Shown: positions 15,365 to 23,755 of the stretch, one piece after another
Numbering within the stretch: the stretch's first letter is position 1
Layout: every line of letters begins with the position of its first letter
Source of the DNA: Myxococcota bacterium
GTDB taxonomy: Bacteria > Myxococcota_C > UBA6777
Assembly: GCA_023150835.1 (NCBI GenBank)
Contig: JAKLKB010000039.1
Coordinates: forward strand, 1-46,101
Length of the DNA: 46,101 nt
Reading direction: 5' to 3'
Notes under the pieces: generated by a model
Database searches by the model: none
Told to the model about the DNA's origin: nothing
Seen by the model: the letters and a program-made list of their open reading frames with translations, nothing else
Position numbers and translations under genes: made by a program

Positions 15365-15477
15365 TACGAAATCCGCCCGTTGTGTGATCGTAAAGAGGTA
15401 GGGGCAGCCCCCTGTGGCTGCCCAAGAATCGGGCCTCTACGTGCTATCCTTGGTGTGCGCATCACTCGGATATCGTA
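15365..15477. mobile_element. MITE-like family A copy
   Basis: tacgaaatccg ... gtaggggcagccccctgtggctgccc ... cggatatcgta, followed by TCA. Confidence 0.78.
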
Positions 15478-15563
15478 TCACGAGACTTGCAACAGCACAC
15501 CATACACAACGCCCACGAACACCGCCTACGTGGAAGTCTGTGGGAGTCCGAAGCCGCGCAACG

Positions 15564-18128
15564 ATGGAACGGATCAACACACCACGCAAAGGAGTACAGC
15601 CTGTGTGGAAGAGATGGCTCCAGCCTTGGCAACGACAAGGGGCGTGGTCGCCCCCCGATCGCATCAGCGGTCTTGGCGGCCCCGTTGAGTTGCGCACAGA
15701 TCGCTTTGGCATCTGCCACTTGTTGACGCGCAAAGAAGAAGATCTCTTTCGCGCCCAAGGCTTCCAAACCGCCCGAGATCGGCTGTTTCAGATGGACACC
15801 ACCCGCCGCTTGGGTGGAGGCCAACTCTCCGAGCTTTTCGGCGATGTCTCGGCAGCAACGTGGGATCCCTCGCTTCATTTGCGCGGCCAAGGACTTAGCA
15901 GCATCGACTATCTGATGCGCGTCTTGGGCCTCAAAGAAGCCGCAAATGAGGGCCTGTCATGGGTCTCCCCCCGAACCTATCGGGCTTTGCGCGCCTACAG
16001 CGAAGGCGTCAACGAATACATCGAACAGATCCGCCGCGCCGAACGCTTGCCCCTCCCTTACAAGATCCTCCAAGCCGAACCCGCCCCTTGGCAAGCCCAC
16101 GATAGCCTCTTGGTGCTGCGCGTCCTCGGACTCCAACTCAGCTTCACATGGCGGCTGCTGCTGGCTTTTGGGGCGATCTGTCATCCGCTCAGCCAACGCC
16201 CCGAAGCCCTCCAAAGCCTGCTCCCTTCTCATCTCGGCTTCACCCTCGGCACCGAATACCTCCCCCACGATCTCGCCACACTCTTCCCACCCTCCGCCCT
16301 CGAAGAACCCTCCGCCTCTCGCCTGCTCTCAGACTCCTCCGCTCCTTCTTCTCCACCCGCGACTTCCCCTTCGGATCCCTCCGAGATCCTCTCTCCCGAG
16401 GGCACAGGACGCGGAAGTTGCGCATGGGTGATCGCTGGACGCCACACCCAACACGGTGGCCCCTTGCTTTGCAACGATCCCCATCTCCAAATGCGCCTCC
16501 CTTGCAACTTTTACCAGATCCGCTTGTGGGGCGGAGAATACGACGTGATCGGCCTTTCGATCCCGGGCGTACCCGGCATCTTCGCAGGCCACAACTCCTC
16601 GATCGCTTGGGGAACCACCCTGCATCGCGCCGACGACGCCGATATCTACCTCGAAGAACTCGATCCCTCGGGCGAACGCTATCGCCACGAAGAACGCTAC
16701 CTCCCCTTGATCCGCCGCGAAGAGATCATCCATGTCCAAGGCGAAGCCCCTCGCACCCGATGGGTCCGCTCCACACAACGCGGCCCCCTGCTCAGCGATG
16801 CCTTGCGCGGCCCTCTCCCCACCCTCCGACCCTATACCCTCCGATGGACGGGACAAGAAGGCGTTCGCGAAGCCGAATCCATCCTCCAACTCAACCGCGC
16901 CAAAAAATGGACCGACTTCCTCGAAGCCATCCGCTACGCCCGTGTACCCGCCCTCAACTACGTCTACGCCGACAAACAGGGAAATATCGGAGCCGCTGTC
17001 GCAGGTTATCTACCTCTTCGCAATCGCAAACCTCGCATCTTTCGACCTCTCATCGGCAACCACCCCCAAGCCACTTGGAAAGGCGAAGCCCCTTTCGACG
17101 AACTCCCCCGCTGCCTCAACCCCGAACAAGGCTACCTCATCCTTTCCGGCCAAGCCCCCACCTCTCCCCTCCAAGGCTACGCCCCCACAGGCCTCTGGAC
17201 CTCTGGCACACGCTCTCAACGCATCGAAGACCTACTCTTGCGACTTGTCCGACAAAAGAAAGTCGGCGTCGAAGAGATGGCTCGCCTACAGCGCGATACT
17301 TATTGTCTTTGGAGCCGAGACTTCCTCCAGCGCACACTCAAAACCTTTCAAATGCGCGCAAGGCTCACCCCCGAGATCCGCAAACAAGTCGATCTACTCC
17401 TCGAATGGAACGGACGTGTCGGCCCTGAAAGCATCGCGGCAACGATCTTTTCGACCTTCCAACTCCAACTCATGGAACAACACTACAAACCCGCGATGGG
17501 AGACACGCTCTATCGACGATGGCTTGAGATCTCTCACGAACTTGAACCCCCGATCGAGCCGATCTTTCGCCGCCCTGATCTCTGGCTCCCCGAAGACCGC
17601 GATCAAGCCATCCAAGACGCTCTTATCCGAACCTACCAAGATCTCGAAAAACGCATGGGTCCCGAACCCGACCGCTGGCGGTGGGGCAAGATCCACCGCC
17701 TCACCCTCCGTCCTGTCTTTTTCCGCGACACTCACCACCTCCAAGAATGGGTGCGCGGACCCTTCGCCACAGGCGGCTCCACCCTCAGTATCAATACAGG
17801 CAGCTTTAGCTGGAGCCGACCCTTTGAGCAACGCGTCGGGGCTGCCGCCCGACAGATCATCGACTTCGGCTCACTCGACGCTTCCCAATGGATCCTCTGT
17901 GGCGGGCAATCCGAAGACCCCCAAAGCCCCCATTACGACGACCAGCTCGATATATGGCTCCAAGGCGATCATGTCTCCATGCACGCCTCCACCCTCGCCC
18001 TTCAACCCATGCGCAGCTCTTGGCTACTCCCCGAAGACGCCCCCATCCCCAAACAACCGATCCTGCGCACCAAAACCGAATCCACCCCCAACAACAGCCC
18101 CAAAGCCCAGCCCCAACGAGGTCACTGA
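15564..18128 (+). CDS. Penicillin acylase / AHL acylase family Ntn hydrolase (peptidase S45)
   Basis: DRFGICH, AQGFQTARDRLFQMD, processing site G-SCAWVIAG, PLLCNDPHL, NYVYADKQGNIG, WRWGKIH, GQSEDPQSPHYDDQL. Confidence 0.9.
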   Translation: MERINTPRKGVQPVWKRWLQPWQRQGAWSPPDRISGLGGPVELRTDRFGICHLLTRKEEDLFRAQGFQTARDRLFQMDTTRRLGGGQLSELFGDVSAATWDPSLHLRGQGLSSIDYLMRVLGLKEAANEGLSWVSPRTYRALRAYSEGVNEYIEQIRRAERLPLPYKILQAEPAPWQAHDSLLVLRVLGLQLSFTWRLLLAFGAICHPLSQRPEALQSLLPSHLGFTLGTEYLPHDLATLFPPSALEEPSASRLLSDSSAPSSPPATSPSDPSEILSPEGTGRGSCAWVIAGRHTQHGGPLLCNDPHLQMRLPCNFYQIRLWGGEYDVIGLSIPGVPGIFAGHNSSIAWGTTLHRADDADIYLEELDPSGERYRHEERYLPLIRREEIIHVQGEAPRTRWVRSTQRGPLLSDALRGPLPTLRPYTLRWTGQEGVREAESILQLNRAKKWTDFLEAIRYARVPALNYVYADKQGNIGAAVAGYLPLRNRKPRIFRPLIGNHPQATWKGEAPFDELPRCLNPEQGYLILSGQAPTSPLQGYAPTGLWTSGTRSQRIEDLLLRLVRQKKVGVEEMARLQRDTYCLWSRDFLQRTLKTFQMRARLTPEIRKQVDLLLEWNGRVGPESIAATIFSTFQLQLMEQHYKPAMGDTLYRRWLEISHELEPPIEPIFRRPDLWLPEDRDQAIQDALIRTYQDLEKRMGPEPDRWRWGKIHRLTLRPVFFRDTHHLQEWVRGPFATGGSTLSINTGSFSWSRPFEQRVGAAARQIIDFGSLDASQWILCGGQSEDPQSPHYDDQLDIWLQGDHVSMHASTLALQPMRSSWLLPEDAPIPKQPILRTKTESTPNNSPKAQPQRGH

Positions 18129-19693
18129 TGCTGTTTGAACGCGAAACCCCCAAAACGCCCTTTGGCAGCGCTCCGCGCAACGAACAACACACCGTCCACA
18201 TCAAAGGACGCCCGGGCGCCCTCGAGATCCTTCTCGACGAAGAAGCTCCCCTCACTTCGCTCCTGCGCGATCTCCAAGCCCTGCTGTCCCAAAATCAAAC
18301 CATGATCCACGGCGTCGCTGTCCGGCTCAACTTTGGGGAACGCCCCATCGATCGACTCCAACTCTCCGAGATCAAACGCCTCCTCGAACGCTTTGAGATC
18401 CGACTCCAACGCGTCGACCTCGCACCCTCCGCTCTTGAAGACTTCCTCGAAGAAGCCTTCGGACTCCCCATCCATATCAAGTCACAACACCAGATCATCC
18501 AAGCTGCTTCACCACTTCCTGCTCTTTCTCCTTCCTTTCAAGAAGAATCCTTGCCACCCATGCAGACCGATATCTTGGATTCCTCCACATACACCCCCAC
18601 CCACGCTCACCCCCACCACCACGAACCCTCTCGCTACGTACGCCACGACGCCTCCCAAACATCCCACGAACACGCTTCTCCTTCGCAACTCCCCCAACAT
18701 CCGCGATATTCGAGACACCCGCAAACCACGCAACACCCGACTCATCCGCAAACCACGCAATACCCGACTCATCCGCAAACCACGCAATACCCGACTCATC
18801 CGCAAACCACGCAACCTCCGCCACACGCTCGCTCGATCTCATCGACCCCCACACCACAAGGACACAAGCACCACACTCCCGCCCCCACACCACAAGGACA
18901 CAAGCACCACACTCCCGCCCCCACACTACATGCCTACTCCCCCGCTGTCGCCTCCAACCCCACCGCAGACTATCCCGCACATCGGCCTACGGCAACACCT
19001 TCTCATCCTCACTCACGTTCTGCGCAACATCCCGCGAATCCGACATTTCCGCATCCTTCCGAGCCTGCACACACGCCGCAGAACAGTCCCCCTTCGCGGC
19101 GCGCCTCGCTCTCCGAACGCCTTGCCCCCAAACAACCTGCTTACGAACCTGCCTCTCCCAACGCTCGCCGTGACACCGCCCCCTACGAAGAAGATCGCGA
19201 TCTCGACGGCCTCCCCGATACCTTGATGCCCTTCGCCTCCAACCTCACAGAAACCACCCACGAAGACAACAACCGCAACCATTCGCTCCACGCAGAGATC
19301 GACACTTCTTCGTCAGCAGGACGACAAGTCCACCGAATTATGCGTACATGCCGCGCAGGAACTCGTCTTGATCTAGAAGGCGATGTCTGGGTGTTTGGAG
19401 ATGTGAATCCGGGCGCAGAGATCCGAGCAACGGGCGATATCATCATCTTTGGAAGTCTGCGCGGCATCGCCCACGCAGGCTCCGAAGGCAACGACAACGC
19501 GATCATCGCCGCCTTCGAACTGAACCCCATGCAGCTTCGCCTCGGCAACCAGATCGCTGTCTCCCCCCCTGCTGACGGACGCAACAAACAGCGCGTCGAC
19601 ACCGAAGTGGCTTTCCTCAACCAACACCACCAGATCGAAGTCAAGAACTATCAAGGCAAATTCCCCCACGAAGTCCCCAAACCCCACCCCTGA
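18128..19693 (+). CDS. minC: Septum site-determining protein MinC with a very long His/Pro/Thr-rich linker
   Basis: N-domain VHIKGRPGALEILLD; C-terminal beta-helix RTCRAGTRL..GDVWVFGDVNPGAEIRATGDIIIFGSLRGIAHAG..PMQLRLG; ATG overlaps the acylase stop (TGATG). Confidence 0.88.
   Translation: MLFERETPKTPFGSAPRNEQHTVHIKGRPGALEILLDEEAPLTSLLRDLQALLSQNQTMIHGVAVRLNFGERPIDRLQLSEIKRLLERFEIRLQRVDLAPSALEDFLEEAFGLPIHIKSQHQIIQAASPLPALSPSFQEESLPPMQTDILDSSTYTPTHAHPHHHEPSRYVRHDASQTSHEHASPSQLPQHPRYSRHPQTTQHPTHPQTTQYPTHPQTTQYPTHPQTTQPPPHARSISSTPTPQGHKHHTPAPTPQGHKHHTPAPTLHAYSPAVASNPTADYPAHRPTATPSHPHSRSAQHPANPTFPHPSEPAHTPQNSPPSRRASLSERLAPKQPAYEPASPNARRDTAPYEEDRDLDGLPDTLMPFASNLTETTHEDNNRNHSLHAEIDTSSSAGRQVHRIMRTCRAGTRLDLEGDVWVFGDVNPGAEIRATGDIIIFGSLRGIAHAGSEGNDNAIIAAFELNPMQLRLGNQIAVSPPADGRNKQRVDTEVAFLNQHHQIEVKNYQGKFPHEVPKPHP
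18716..18926 (+). repeat. Coding tandem repeats in the minC linker (27 bp x ~4, HPQTTQYPT; 36 bp x 2, PTPQGHKHHTPA)
   Basis: catccgcaaaccacgcaatacccgact repeats and cccacaccacaaggacacaagcaccacactcccgcc x2. Confidence 0.9.
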
Positions 19694-20225: not shown

Positions 20226-21908
20226 TCAAGCAAAATCCTGCGCCTCGATCCCATAACGCTTGATCTTCTCCCAAAGATTCTTGCGATCCATCCCTGACAC
20301 CCGCGCTGCTTGCGAAAGATTCCCTCGACAAGCCCGCAAGATCCGCGTCAGGTAATCCCGCTCAAAATGCTCCACCATCCGCGACTTTGCCTCTCGAAAA
20401 GGCAAGATCCTTCCGCCACCGACGATCTCTTGTTTTTCCCACAGATCCGCCCCTATCGATCCGTCCATCTCTTTGGTTCCTACCGTCGACAACGAGACCC
20501 CCACCCGACTTTTCGAGGATTCTGCCAACCCCAAAGACAAAGTATCTTCCTTTTCCGTCGGAAACATCGATCCTATCGGACCAACCAACCCCTGCTGCGC
20601 AACGTACGCCTCTTCCTTGATCCCTGATGGCAAGGGAGTTAACACCGAAACCACACGACCCGATGAAGCCGATGAATAGGACGATACAGGAGCGGGCGAA
20701 GGATGCCCACCCAACGGAGCCGACACCAACCCCATCCCGTATGCTCGCGCTTCGGGCCAATGGATCGCCTCCGCACGGATGGTATCTTCTTCGCTCATCA
20801 CCACCAACTGCATGATCTTATTTTCCAATTCGCGGATATTCCCCGGCCAATCATATCGCTGCAATCGCTGCATCGCTTGGGCCTCGATCTGCACACCTGT
20901 CCGCCCTGTTTCCTTGATCGCACGCCGCAAAAAATACCTCACCAACAACGGGATATCCTCTCGGCGCTCCCGCAACGACGGCAGCCTGATCGGGATGATA
21001 TTCAAGCGATAATACAGATCCTCTCGAAATCGACCTGCTCTCGTCTCCATCAACAGATCCCGATTCGTCGCTGAAATAAACCGAACATCCGCCCTCTGCG
21101 TCTGCACGCTCCCCAGCGGTTTATACTCTTTCTGTTGTAAAAATCGCAAAAGCTTGACTTGTACCCCCAACGAGATCTCCCCAATCTCATCCAAAAACAA
21201 CGTCCCCCGATCCGCCTCTTTCACCAAACCATCGTGATCTCTCGACGCATCCGTAAACGCCCCCTTCTTGTAACCGAAAAGCTCGCTCTCCAACAACTGC
21301 TCCGGCAAAGCACCACAGTTCACCGTCACCATCGAAGCCCGCGCACTCAACGCATGAATCGCCTGCGCGATCAGCTCTTTCCCTGTCCCCGACTCTCCGT
21401 AGATCACCACCGAAGCGTCTGTCTTCGCGATCGAAGGCAACTTCTTCAAAATATCCATCAACCGAGGTGATTGACCGATGATGTGGCTGAGTTCCTTGCG
21501 CTGCCCCAACTCCCGCCGTAGCTGCGAGTTCTCTTCGGCCAACTGATGCGTCCCCAACACCGTCCGCAAACGATGCAACAACACCTCCTTGTGGACGGGC
21601 TTGGGGATATAATCCACCGCCCCCGCCTTCAGAAAATGCACCGCGCTATCAATGCTTCCGTGCGATGTCATCACGATCACAGGAAGATCAGGCATCCGCT
21701 CACGCAACGCTTCCAACAGCGCTTCCCCACCCATCAACGGCATCATCACGTCCGATAACACAAGGTGGATCGCATCCTGATCCCGCTCCAACACTTCCAA
21801 CGCTTCTTGCCCATTTGACGCAAAACACACCTCCCAACCCGCTCTTTGGCACATCACCTCGATCACCCGCTGCGTATAGCGATCGTCGTCTACCACCAAG
21901 ATCCGCAT
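20226..21908 (-). CDS. Sigma-54-dependent response regulator (NtrC family: REC - AAA+ - Fis HTH)
   Basis: ILVVDDD, SDVMMP, YIPKP; GESGTGKEL, ESELFG, GAFTDA, LFLDEIGE, FREDLYYRL, WPGNIRELEN; HTH GNLSQAARVSGMDRKNLWEK; AAGGAG RBS. Confidence 0.95.
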   Translation of the reverse strand: MRILVVDDDRYTQRVIEVMCQRAGWEVCFASNGQEALEVLERDQDAIHLVLSDVMMPLMGGEALLEALRERMPDLPVIVMTSHGSIDSAVHFLKAGAVDYIPKPVHKEVLLHRLRTVLGTHQLAEENSQLRRELGQRKELSHIIGQSPRLMDILKKLPSIAKTDASVVIYGESGTGKELIAQAIHALSARASMVTVNCGALPEQLLESELFGYKKGAFTDASRDHDGLVKEADRGTLFLDEIGEISLGVQVKLLRFLQQKEYKPLGSVQTQRADVRFISATNRDLLMETRAGRFREDLYYRLNIIPIRLPSLRERREDIPLLVRYFLRRAIKETGRTGVQIEAQAMQRLQRYDWPGNIRELENKIMQLVVMSEEDTIRAEAIHWPEARAYGMGLVSAPLGGHPSPAPVSSYSSASSGRVVSVLTPLPSGIKEEAYVAQQGLVGPIGSMFPTEKEDTLSLGLAESSKSRVGVSLSTVGTKEMDGSIGADLWEKQEIVGGGRILPFREAKSRMVEHFERDYLTRILRACRGNLSQAARVSGMDRKNLWEKIKRYGIEAQDFA

Positions 21909-22030
21909 CTCTCTCTCCTTTCGCCTCGATCCACCCTTATCTTCGCTCCCTTCCACACAAGGGCGCGACCGTGTGCTTGGTCATTGTCTCTCCTTTCACC
22001 TCGATCCATCCTCGCCTTCGCTCCCTACAA
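21909..22030 (-). repeat. Diverged ~45-bp duplication of the regulator's RBS region
   Basis: tctctcctttcgcctcgatccacccttatcttcgctccct vs tctctcctttcacctcgatccatcctcgccttcgctccct. Confidence 0.75.
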
Positions 22031-22051
22031 AACGCCCTGTCTCTTTTTCCT

Positions 22052-22327
22052 GTGGTATATACACCACGATAGCGAGGTAAAACAACCACCCACCCTCAAG
22101 CTCCGCTCAACTTGTTCTTTTCCCCACAAAAAAAGCTTGCCTTCATCCCCGAAAAATCAAGCATCCTCGACTTTTTTCCTCCACACACACCTCGTCTTAC
22201 TCTTCCCGCCCAACGCCAACACACCACCCAGTCCCTTCAAAACACGGGCTTTCATCTGTGGTAAAAAAACCATACCGCCCTCCAAAAAAGCTCCCACCTC
22301 CGCCGTCATCGTGGGGTTCCTTTTCAC
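22052..22327. promoter_or_regulatory. Putative bEBP upstream activator sequences, GTGG-N8-CCAC
   Basis: gtggtatatacaccac 22052-22067; gaggtaaaacaaccac 22074-22089 (22 bp later); gtggtaaaaaaaccat 22258-22273; weaker sites at 22112-22127 and 22311-22327. Confidence 0.6.
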
Positions 22328-22329
22328 CT

Positions 22330-22397
22330 GTAAAAAATATTTTATAAAACAAATACAATGACTTAAAAAGTAGAACCGTTTTGGGAACAGATCATGC
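22330..22397 (+). promoter_or_regulatory. IHF-like site plus sigma-54 (-24/-12) promoter
   Basis: A/T tract then CAA-TGAC-TTA (22356-22365); GG(22384-85)-AACAGATCAT-GC(22396-97), i.e. GG-N10-GC spacing; predicted +1 about 22409. Confidence 0.6.
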
Positions 22398-22408
22398 CCA
22401 ACACGCAA

Positions 22409-22711
22409 ACGTCCACAAGAAGATGACCCCCTCTTCACTCCATCTTCTCGCAGACGTGGGCGGACAAACCGCGCTTGCCACTATGAACGTTCCCCTCCGT
22501 TCGAGCAAGTCTCGTGTTTGTCGCAAATGAGCCGCTTTCTCAGACCCTACTTCTGATCGAGCGTCCACTCATCTTCGCCCCTGGTTCGTTGTCTCATTTT
22601 TTACGGGCTCCCCCTCTCCCGTCCGATGAACAATCACGAACCAGATCAACAAAGCCGTTGTGTAGCAAGTGTGTTCCCCTCACCACTTCCTATCCACAGC
22701 GGCTTTTTTTT
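22409..22711 (+). ncRNA. Candidate sigma-54-dependent sRNA of five tandem hairpins with CCC(C)U loops
   Basis: Hairpins at 22409-22457, 22463-22522, 22527-22572, 22581-22644 and 22651-22706, then T8; the first hairpin starts at the predicted +1; no RBS-bearing ORF inside. Confidence 0.65.
22651..22711 (+). terminator. Intrinsic terminator-like hairpin
   Basis: aaagccg...cggcttt stem followed by a run of 8 T (22704-22711). Confidence 0.65.
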
Positions 22712-22885
22712 ATCCTCGCCACCCCCAAAACAAGCCTTCACACGCCACACGCCACCAAATCTCCCCCATCCTCGCCCCCTTCGACAGCCTTGATCTTGCC
22801 GCAAGGCTTTGTTAGCCTACCCAAGCGGCTCAATACAATGCTCCGCCTCTCTTGCCTACAAAAGAAAGAATCCTGCGAGGTAAGT

Positions 22886-23755
22886 ATGCGATTTCTTGCT
22901 TTTCCCCTGTTTGTCTTTTTTTTGACGCTTCCTCTGTTTGCCCAAGCAGAGACGCCCACCCAGACCGCCACCAACACCGACAACACCGTCGCAGAGATCC
23001 CCTGCACCCAAGTCCTACAAACCTACCAAGACGCACTCTCCCAAATCGAACGCTGGCTCGCCCCACGCAGTACATGGCCGCGCAACCTTTCTGCCTTGCG
23101 CCGTGTCGAAAAAGAATTTCCTTCCTGTTTTGCTTCGCGCTCTGGTCTTTCTCTGATCGAACGCCGCAAAAAAGTCGAACTCCGTGTCCGCCAAGATGCC
23201 GAGCAAACCAAGCTGAAAAAGCTGCCTAAAAAAGACCAAGAGGCCAAAGAAGCCGCCAAACACGGATACCGCTCCGCGATGGAGATGAACCTTAAACGCA
23301 GTCGGTTTTGGTGGAGCGTTGAGCTTGGCGCGTATCTGCATTTTTATATGCCGATGGGCCAGATCAATCAACTTCCCCAAGGTATCCGCCCCTTTAACTT
23401 CACAGGGTTTTTGTTAGGCGGACGTTGGGGATACGCAGGCAACGGCTTTTTGATCACAGGAGATCTCTTTTATGCCACAGGCGCTGAGAGCTTTATGCTC
23501 CAATTTGGCGCGACTTTCGGATACATGTTTAACCCTTACTTTACCCTTGAAGCAGGAACAGGTCTGAATGTGATCGGCGCACAAGGACTCGATAGCCCGG
23601 GCATCCATGTTCCCTTTGAAGTGGGGATGACCTTGCGCTTTAACTTCCGCACCACCAGCCTTGGTGTGCGATTTGTCAATAGCCTTGCATACGATCTCGA
23701 ACGCAACGCCTTCGCCACCAGCGTACGCATCAACCTTGTGGTCAGCAGCCTCTAA
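22886..23755 (+). CDS. Exported hypothetical protein: Cys-pair helical domain plus small beta-barrel-like domain (paralogue 1)
   Basis: Signal peptide MRFLAFPLFVFFLTLPLFAQA; GAGG RBS; C...PSCFAS; FWWSVELG; amphipathic strands to the C-terminus. Confidence 0.65.
   Translation: MRFLAFPLFVFFLTLPLFAQAETPTQTATNTDNTVAEIPCTQVLQTYQDALSQIERWLAPRSTWPRNLSALRRVEKEFPSCFASRSGLSLIERRKKVELRVRQDAEQTKLKKLPKKDQEAKEAAKHGYRSAMEMNLKRSRFWWSVELGAYLHFYMPMGQINQLPQGIRPFNFTGFLLGGRWGYAGNGFLITGDLFYATGAESFMLQFGATFGYMFNPYFTLEAGTGLNVIGAQGLDSPGIHVPFEVGMTLRFNFRTTSLGVRFVNSLAYDLERNAFATSVRINLVVSSL

Follow-up and report, generated by a model that had tools for sequence, protein, structure and literature searches.

The window considered here is the whole stretch of DNA that was analysed, 46,101 nucleotides (nt) from a genome that NCBI labels as a Myxococcota bacterium. 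It harbors what can be regarded with high confidence as a real, expressed, conserved, and structured small RNA (sRNA) of ~303 nt (22409-22711, plus strand), consisting of the hairpins H1 to H4, a terminator hairpin H5 and a terminal U8 tract (22704-22711). This assignment relies on the fold, on contigs from RNA libraries, on covariation, and on the presence of a single copy. Divergently from the RNA, on the minus strand, lies the gene for P0001 (20226-21908), an NtrC-type response regulator and sigma-54 activator of 560 amino acids (aa) with a matching Pfam domain composition. The spacer between both genes contains two dyads, the distal TGTGGT-N6-ACCA (22051-22066, at ~-358 from the predicted start) and the proximal TGTGGT-N7-ACCA (22257-22272, at ~-152, kept in the sister genome), which are candidate enhancer sites (upstream activating sequences). 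They are followed by an A/T-rich tract (22331-22370), also kept in the sister genome, that fills the stretch towards the promoter and may represent a bend or IHF region, and by a sigma-54-type -24/-12 element of the form GG-N10-GC (GGAACAGATCATGC, 22384-22397, plus strand), which was recognized by sequence and conservation. On the other side of the RNA, P0002 (22886-23755, plus strand) encodes a protein of 289 aa with a signal peptide and without a Pfam family; it is a neighbor whose membership in the unit is not demonstrated.

The source genome (G000) is a 7.56-Mb bin of 93% completeness. Its GTDB phylum comprises only six genomes in three genera, all labelled by NCBI as Myxococcota metagenome-assembled genomes (MAGs), and the uncultured lineage is known solely via metagenome bins from sludge and wastewater. 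G000 and its sister genome G001, a MAG with the NCBI label 'Myxococcota bacterium', form genus g1; G004 represents the second genus, G003 and G005 the third, and L069 and L072 are metagenome contigs. Six full-length RNA loci (G000, G001, G004, L069, G003, and G005) are compared in the following, together with a shorter two-hairpin analogue on L072.

The original prediction, made from the DNA alone, had proposed five hairpins with unrelated stems and C-rich loops, the absence of an open reading frame (ORF) with a ribosome-binding site from the RNA, and folding superior to that of shuffled controls, and all of these points hold. In the minimum free energy (MFE) fold of 22409-22711, which is identical to the centroid fold, each hairpin is present on the plus strand at its predicted position, namely H1 (22409-22457, loop ACCCCCUCUUCACUC), H2 (22463-22522, loop UUCCCCUC), H3 (22527-22572, loop CCCUACU), H4 (22581-22644, loop CUCCCCCUCU), and H5 (22651-22706, loop UUCCCCU). 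The MFE amounts to -107.6 kcal/mol versus -64.95 +/- 4.92 kcal/mol in 100 dinucleotide shuffles, none of which folds as low (z -8.67). Four of the five runs of at least four C in the RNA reside in hairpin loops, where the partition function yields an unpaired probability of 1.00, and the five loops, 47 nt in total, are devoid of G. The remaining run (22578-22581) is base-paired to GGG (22458-60) within a predicted long-range helix that was absent from the earlier description, formed by GGGCG (22458-62) and CGCCC (22575-79) and enclosing H2 and H3. No tandem or direct repeats occur inside 22409-22711, thus the hairpins are not copies of each other. Since the RNA is also present only once in G000, a tandem repeat, a miniature inverted-repeat transposable element, or a minisatellite can be ruled out. 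No plus-strand ORF of at least 20 aa is wholly contained in the RNA. A simple scan of G000 for clusters of C-loop hairpins returned mostly palindromic repeat families.

Two further structural details may be mentioned. A long-range helix of the type GGGN...NCCC, closing a two-hairpin domain 5' of H4, is predicted in G000, G001, L069, and G004. H4 is preceded by a conserved motif, CCCCU(G/A)G.

The RNA is assigned to the plus strand because of substitutions that create G-U pairs, G-U pairs in the alignment, and the positions of the U-run and the promoter. G000 and G001 differ at eight positions inside the RNA, none of which breaks a pair. Two of these changes in G001 convert a C-G pair (22465, C>U) and an A-U pair (22542, A>G) into G-U pairs on the plus strand and into C-A mismatches on the minus strand, and by a third (22449, C>U) a pair is gained. 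G-U pairs are furthermore found at seven positions of the six-sequence alignment, each of the six homologues has a U-tract behind H5, and promoter elements lie 5' of the first hairpin in every one of them. H5, a GC-rich hairpin (22651-22706) directly joined to T8 (22704-22711), has the composition of an intrinsic terminator; a simple terminator scanner missed it because its loop exceeds 8 nt and its stem is interrupted.

Expression is indicated by public RNA libraries. An index search with a 1.4-kb stretch detected it in 20 runs, six of them RNA libraries; four of the six, originating from four studies of activated sludge or bioreactors, were mapped. The data are assembled contigs, each carrying one rough depth figure and neither strand nor true ends. 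In all four runs, contigs are 100% identical to the window and at the RNA confined to 22419-22701, with contig-free flanks (21900-22416 and 22702-22840), which are not counted as silence. The individual contigs cover 22431-22654 in X15 (word depth 2164), 22425-22701 in X17 (8.5), 22419-22579 and 22550-22682 in X18 (731 and 113, respectively), and 22443-22701 in X19 (357). X15 additionally contains two contigs over the P0002 gene with depths of 4.5-5.1, to be set against the 2164 of the RNA contig with the reservation that contigs measure depth poorly. The contigs of X17 and X19 both end at 22701 without a loose end, a weak hint at the 3' end, and adapter letters adjoin the contig ends 22419, 22431, 22579, and 22654. 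The exact 5' and 3' ends of the RNA, and the strand of the library signal, are what we infer.

Of the adapter-flanked ends, 22579 (X18) is located in the linker that joins H3 to H4, and 22654 (X15) at the base of H5. The 5' part of the RNA in X18 is about six times as deep as the 3' part. These observations could reflect processing or a library artefact.

The RNA is also conserved. In G001 it shows 95% identity over a 381-base query, and further homologues were found in G004, where it again lies beside the regulator orthologue, in G003, in G005, and on the metagenome contig L069. No segment of the locus is better conserved between G000 and G001 than the RNA (97.4% identity); the flanking coding sequences reach 93.9% and 93.2%, and the spacers 69% (upstream) and 92%. 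A covariance model of H4-H5 gave one strong match in each of five of the six phylum genomes and no second copy; as the model was built from these same sequences, the informative part of this result is the absence of paralogues. The sixth genome, G002, which is 64% complete and also lacks a regulator orthologue, yielded no match with the model. H5-like patterns in G000 (contig C75) and G004 (contig C173) were discarded, the first falling in coding sequence and the second not being recovered by the covariance model as another G004 match. The homologues are 303-334 nt long and fold well (z -5.18 in G004, -9.15 in L069, -6.90 in G003, and -6.53 in G005; -5.86 for the L072 analogue).

Between genera, the stems have almost no sequence in common, whereas the loops keep U-C4-5-UC. 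C-run loops read UCCCCCUC (twice), CUCCCCUUU, and CCCCCUC in L069, UCCCCCUC, UACCCCCUC, CCCCCA, CCCCU, and CCCC in G004, UCCCCCUC and CCCCCU in G003, and UCCCCCUC and CUCCCCCUCU in G005; other loops of G003 and G005 are likewise pyrimidine-rich, e.g. UACCUCCUAUU. The proportion of C4+ runs located in hairpin loops of the MFE fold is 4/5 in G000 and G001, 5/6 in G004, 3/5 in L069 (a fourth being mostly unpaired), and 2/3 in both G003 and G005. Accordingly, the number of C-loop units varies, with five in G000 and G004, four in L069, and two in G003, G005, and L072.

Stem evolution was followed in the alignment of H4-H5 (six sequences), in which 87.2% of cells are paired versus 29-47% when the partners are slid. 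Both sides change in 12 of 30 pairs, a value reached by 9 of 500 shuffles, and 22 compensatory cells face 9.5 +/- 2.3 in shuffles, none of the 500 reaching this number. In the outer stem of H4, six of the nine pairs covary. MAFFT did not succeed in aligning the 5' halves, and correspondences within H1-H3 were read by eye: AAGAUG-loop-CAUCUU of G000 and L069 would correspond to AAGUG-loop-CACUU of G004, and GAACG/CGUUC of G000 to CAGGU/ACCUG of G004 and L069. The conservation of loops and structure in relatives that the original prediction anticipated is thus borne out by compensatory stem changes and retained C-loops across three genera. The base of H5 (22652-22660 with 22697-22705, AAGCCGUUG...CARCGGCUU) is near-invariant across the three genera and L069, with 7 of 11 pairs never varying. 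This invariance, next to stems that change freely, might mark a recognition site for a protein or an RNase.

The region upstream of the RNA shows the sequence composition of a sigma-54 unit, with GG-N10-GC spacing, an rpoN gene in the genome (Sigma54_DBD, 1.2e-65, contig C83 of G000), and a neighboring enhancer-binding AAA+ activator. Pfam detects in P0001 the domains Response_reg (6e-27), Sigma54_activat (3.5e-65), AAA_lid_14, and HTH_8 (1.6e-11); its start codon, ATG at 21908, is preceded by GGAGAGAGAG. The GG (22384-85) and the GC (22396-97) are 10 nt apart, and H1 begins 12 nt past the GC, at the position where sigma-54 initiation had been expected. Both dinucleotides are kept in G001, where the base preceding GG differs, and equivalent -24/-12 elements are found in G004 (GGGTATACTTTTTGC), L069 (TGGCATGCTTTGTGC), and L072 (TGGCAAGGCGCTTGC). 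A sigma-70-like site was not detected in 21900-22900. The pattern TGTGGTN{6,7}ACCA, derived from the very two sites counted, has two matches in the 46-kb window, with 0.07 expected, and both lie in the spacer between P0001 and the RNA. Similar dyads with an A/T spacer, then an A/T-rich tract, occur in L069 (ATGGGGTgtttttACCCCAC) and G004. From their sequence, the dyads would serve as enhancer sites.

An orthologue of P0001 adjoins the RNA in G001 (94% identity), G004 (67%), L069 (62%), and L072 (53% over its full length). The entire arrangement, a divergent regulator, a spacer of ~210-500 nt, GG-N10-GC, and the RNA, is present in four of the six full-length loci (G000, G001, G004, and L069) as well as in L072, and the two dyad sites accompany the RNA in these same loci. 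G003 and G005 lack a P0001 orthologue, their best matches (44-45% identity) being at the level of paralogues. Here, the RNA sits behind a dCTP-deaminase-like gene, the -12 GC is absent, and a sigma-70-like TTGACA-17-CATAGT or TTGACA-16-TATAAA (the latter read by eye) precedes the RNA. This co-variation of the promoter type with the presence of the regulator constitutes the best evidence available that the regulator may drive the RNA. Control by sigma-54 and the regulator appears likely on these grounds. Near the regulators on L022, L070, and L071, which are 50-51% identical to P0001, no such RNA was found. The central claim of the original prediction, a ~300-nt plus-strand C-loop RNA tied to a sigma-54 promoter and the adjacent regulator, fits the fold, the contigs, the covariation, the G-U changes, the presence of rpoN, and the recurrent arrangement.

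Just upstream of the P0001 start codon, a 47-nt direct repeat is found (21912-21958 and 21987-22033; 83% identity, 75-nt spacing). It includes the GGAGAG of P0001 on the minus strand, which resembles a ribosome-binding site (RBS), and a putative upstream ORF of 15 codons comes after the second copy. G001 possesses only one copy of this repeat.

The RNA probably represents a new, lineage-specific family, with Pxr and Dv_sRNA2, whose regulatory context is similar, having been compared by description only. As predicted, it is unannotated: Rfam 15 gave no match at the gathering score in the whole window, the presence of a Pxr model in Rfam being unverified. With E<=10, the region 22300-22800 produced only two minus-strand matches, both to eukaryotic long non-coding RNA models (E 0.16 and 9.3), and at E<=1 nothing matched the RNAs at the loci of L072, L069, G003, G005, and G004. 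No publication describing an RNA at 22409-22711 was found in the literature searched, which did not cover supplements. What would set the RNA apart from Pxr and Dv_sRNA2 is its length of ~300 nt, four to five C-loops combined with a long-range helix, the divergent gene order, and the promoter swap.

Pxr of Myxococcus xanthus bears several resemblances. According to the sections of the source concerned with its locus, the NtrC-like gene pxrR adjoins the sRNA gene, which has a predicted sigma-54 promoter and an upstream enhancer region; the sRNA forms several stem-loops, with an essential SL1 loop, in a host described there as lacking hfq (PMC5684412). The neighboring NtrC-like regulator, the predicted sigma-54 promoter, the enhancer region, and the stem-loops make the context similar, and the host of the RNA described here is NCBI-labelled Myxococcota as well. 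Compared by description, pxr differs in its position downstream of pxrR, the RNA and regulator genes being divergent here, and in its far shorter RNA with three stem-loops, SL1 to SL3, of which SL3 has a conserved stem of 8 bp. Dv_sRNA2 of Desulfovibrio vulgaris adjoins the response regulator DVU0679, which binds upstream of it (DNA-affinity-purified-chip, DAP-chip); it is expressed during growth, and the part of the source devoted to it gives its function as unknown (PMC3333781). It resembles the RNA, again by description, as an sRNA neighboring its response regulator, and differs in being located downstream of the regulator gene instead of divergently.

The 6C sRNA of Actinobacteria (Mycobacterium, Streptomyces, and Corynebacterium) is similar in its loops of C-runs, which, as far as the relevant part of the source goes, pair directly and chaperone-free with single-stranded G-rich RBSs such as AGGGGGG, in hosts described as likewise devoid of Hfq and ProQ (PMC6486639). 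It carries two C-rich loops in a short RNA, unlike the four to five in ~300 nt here, and the promoter of the RNA in G000 is of the sigma-54 type with an adjacent activator. To our knowledge, Actinobacteria lack sigma-54. Membership in 6C can be ruled out by the five hairpins with loops of C3-C5 (6C has two hairpins with at least six C), the Myxococcota host, and the missing Rfam match, which covers 6C if the library includes that model. The closest look-alike of 6C is the two-hairpin C7-loop RNA on L072. This 156-nt RNA candidate (L072:2637-2792, minus strand of the locus) lies on a high-GC contig, forms two long hairpins, and shows a perfect sigma-54 promoter, TGGCAA-N5-TTGC (TGGCAAGGCGCTTGC), divergent from the regulator that is 53% identical to P0001. 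It is 6C-like without matching Rfam, and may connect the RNA family of G000 to a wider class. Redundant C-rich or UCCC loop sites that pair with Shine-Dalgarno (SD) sequences are described, in the parts of the sources dealing with them, for LhrC of Listeria, which is controlled by the two-component system LisRK, for RsaE/RoxS and other UCCC-motif sRNAs, and for IsrR of Staphylococcus (PMC4132741, PMC2790875). These sRNAs differ from the RNA in that they belong to Firmicutes, measure ~100-170 nt, possess sigma-70-type promoters, and lack homology to it.

As best explanation, we consider the locus to be the gene of a trans-acting sRNA, driven by sigma-54 and the regulator, whose C-loops pair with G-rich sites on mRNAs; taken as a whole, this reading has about an even chance of being correct. 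Transcription would start at the sigma-54 promoter (GG 22384-85, GC 22396-97), activated by the divergently encoded NtrC-type regulator from the dyads at ~-358 and -152, and would end at H5 and the U8 tract. The resulting RNA is a chain of hairpins with freely evolving stems and G-free loops that keep U-C4-5-U-C. Each loop could then act as a redundant seed, pairing with single-stranded G-rich stretches (GAGGGG(G)A) on a restricted number of mRNAs. The G-C-rich kissing contacts would be stable by themselves, without a need for Hfq or ProQ, and several loops might raise avidity or allow one RNA to hold several targets. Neither Hfq nor ProQ was found in the 93%-complete G000, and CsrA is encoded there. 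Multivalent base pairing is favored because neither chaperone was found there and because of the precedent of 6C and the UCCC-sRNAs. As a mode of action on its own, base pairing via the C-loops is suggested by analogy, and its prospects fall a little short of even.

Several results weigh against this reading. The target searches confirmed no target. GAGGGG is not enriched ahead of start codons (0.027, versus 0.023-0.029 for control hexamers and 0.082 for AGGAG), and a general form of the anti-SD role, which the original prediction had offered beside a sponge and a processed precursor, thereby finds no backing. When the five loops were ranked by duplex energy against positions -28 to +6 of 91,337 candidate starts of G000, the top was occupied by G-rich antisense noise from crude gene calling, for which reason the ranking was not used. 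Outside g1, the GAGGGG(G) RBSs of SAM_HAT, FxsA, and DUF4350 are not kept wherever the orthologue start is readable. In particular, SAM_HAT was dropped as a target with the loss of its G-run in G002 and G004, FxsA with GAGG alone being kept in G003, G004, and G005, DUF4350 with a G-run kept in G001 only (starts elsewhere being unclear), and DUF5685 with no orthologue outside g1. Duplexes between the RNA and the leader of the regulator lie within the range of shuffled leaders in four lineages, duplexfold not being meaningful on long RNAs. The covariation derives from six sequences of ~4 independent lineages, and the tested structure comes in part from their own folds. Likewise, the RNA-library support consists of assembled contigs without strand, true ends, or precise depth. 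Finally, the retention of loops as whole 8-mers (UCCCCCUC) on unrelated stems would fit a protein-binding motif equally well.

When GAGGGG clusters were sought as potential multi-site partners, only purine-rich tandem repeats emerged. Such repeats, located at G000:C139:76169-76452 (minus strand) and on other contigs, contain many GAGGGGA, e.g. 11 in 284 nt. G000 also harbors many arrays of the palindrome GGGCAGCCCCCTGTGGCTGCCC; a connection of these arrays or of the purine repeats to the RNA is not demonstrated.

The chief rival explanation, which we judge to be unlikely but worth serious attention, is that of a protein sponge. The RNA would be an abundant decoy, whose two to five UCCCCCUC loops titrate a protein that binds C-rich loops, its level being set by the adjacent two-component regulator, as for CrcZ/CbrB and CsrB/RsmZ. 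The recurrence of near-identical loop motifs on unrelated stems, kept including the flanking U and UC, the varying number of C-loop units (2-5), and the high contig depth in RNA libraries are in favor of this idea, and the base of H5, sequence-invariant across genera despite being a stem, hints at sequence-specific recognition. The architecture is also reminiscent of CrcZ and CrcY of Pseudomonas, RNAs of ~400 nt with a repeated short motif, transcribed from a sigma-54 promoter that the neighboring NtrC-family protein CbrB activates. Their motifs are A-rich and bind Hfq/Crc; the motifs of the RNA in G000, in contrast, are runs of C presented by hairpin loops, in a genome where no Hfq was found. 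We know of no bacterial protein that binds C-run loops, and no gene for an RNA-binding protein is conserved at the locus. The sponges CsrB and RsmZ are alike in being chains of hairpins, each with the same short loop motif, and CsrA is present in G000. Yet, GGA cannot occur in the five plus-strand loops, which are free of G; the RNA therefore cannot be a CsrA sponge, and membership in the CsrB/RsmY/RsmZ group is ruled out.

Compatible with either base pairing or a sponge, though improbable, is a precursor role, in which the 300-nt transcript is cut into shorter active hairpin units. It would account for the adapter-flanked contig ends, one of which, 22579, is situated in the single-stranded C-rich H3-H4 linker, and for the two separate contigs of X18, one covering the 5' part (22419-22579) at depth 731 and the other the 3' part (22550-22682) at depth 113. 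The processing of Pxr from a long to a short form, reported in a section of PMC5684412, provides a precedent. Conversely, single contigs span 22425-22701 (X17) and 22443-22701 (X19), and the adapter-flanked ends may stem from library fragmentation, contigs being unable to show true ends.

It is even harder to regard the RNA as a cis-acting leader or attenuator, i.e. as the 5' leader of the downstream gene with H5 as a conditional terminator, an explanation that seems very improbable. In G003, G004, G005, and L069, a co-directional gene for a STAND NTPase with TPR repeats is located 3' of the RNA, and the stretch between the RNA and P0002 yielded no sigma-70-like promoter of its own. However, the RNA is retained in G000 and G001 (97% identity), and a STAND-TPR orthologue was not found in G000, where tblastn gave TPR-level matches only. 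As G000 keeps the RNA intact without this gene, the RNA is unlikely to be only a leader. Moreover, the gene behind the RNA differs by lineage (P0002 in g1), the distance to the next start codon varies from ~75 to 290 nt, the folds display no evident alternative antiterminator pairing, and the depth in X15 is 2164 for the RNA versus ~5 for the downstream gene, as far as so poor a measure as contig depth can tell.

With regard to this neighborhood, the large STAND NTPase (nSTAND1/NACHT)-TPR gene was seen in G004, L069, G003, and G005 (L020:5434-10842; L069; L115; L120:2599-2859), and in G004 a P0002 homologue follows 6.5 kb further on, behind the STAND-TPR gene. In G003, a tandem array of ~33-nt units resembling CCCAGCAGCTTCTTGCTTTACCCCAGAACAT (L115:1560-1700) occupies the space that separates the STAND gene from the terminator of the RNA.

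An RNA from the minus strand with G-rich loops (GAGGGGA), e.g. one that binds CsrA, is hardly credible: that strand folds well too (z -6.08), CsrA is encoded and the contigs are strandless, but the two substitutions that give G-U pairs on the plus strand would leave C-A mismatches there, the G-U pairs at seven alignment positions and the U-tract and promoter elements of all homologues speak for the plus strand, no terminator lies past the last hairpin of the minus strand, and GGA is missing from two of its five loops.

Elsewhere in the window, a penicillin-amidase family gene (15414-18128) is followed by a gene for an unusually long MinC-domain protein of ~600 aa (17888-19693). The MinC start is probably situated further downstream, since the two listed ORFs share ~240 nt.

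The RNA adds a family to a phylum-level lineage, backed by structure, covariation, RNA libraries, and synteny. The locus supplies defined parts, namely a regulator, dyad sites, a promoter, and the RNA, and its relatives offer a natural experiment, as the C-loops are retained while the promoter type switches with the presence or absence of the neighboring activator. It raises the question whether a five-loop, C-rich design of 300 nt in a host without Hfq and ProQ serves multivalent pairing or a sponge, and whether a two-component system coupled to a sigma-54 C-loop sRNA is a general module in the former Deltaproteobacteria and beyond. On a speculative note, the RNA might belong, as the largest member known, to a widespread but unrecognized class of sigma-54 sRNAs with arrays of C-run loops, each under a dedicated neighboring NtrC-type two-component regulator; candidate members are the RNA family of G000, the C7-loop RNA of L072, and Dv_sRNA2. 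If this is true, RNAs of this class could act, in hosts without Hfq or ProQ, as multivalent hubs that either sequester a protein with affinity for C-rich loops or gather several G-rich mRNAs simultaneously, and the number of loops, two to five, would set the capacity of the hub.

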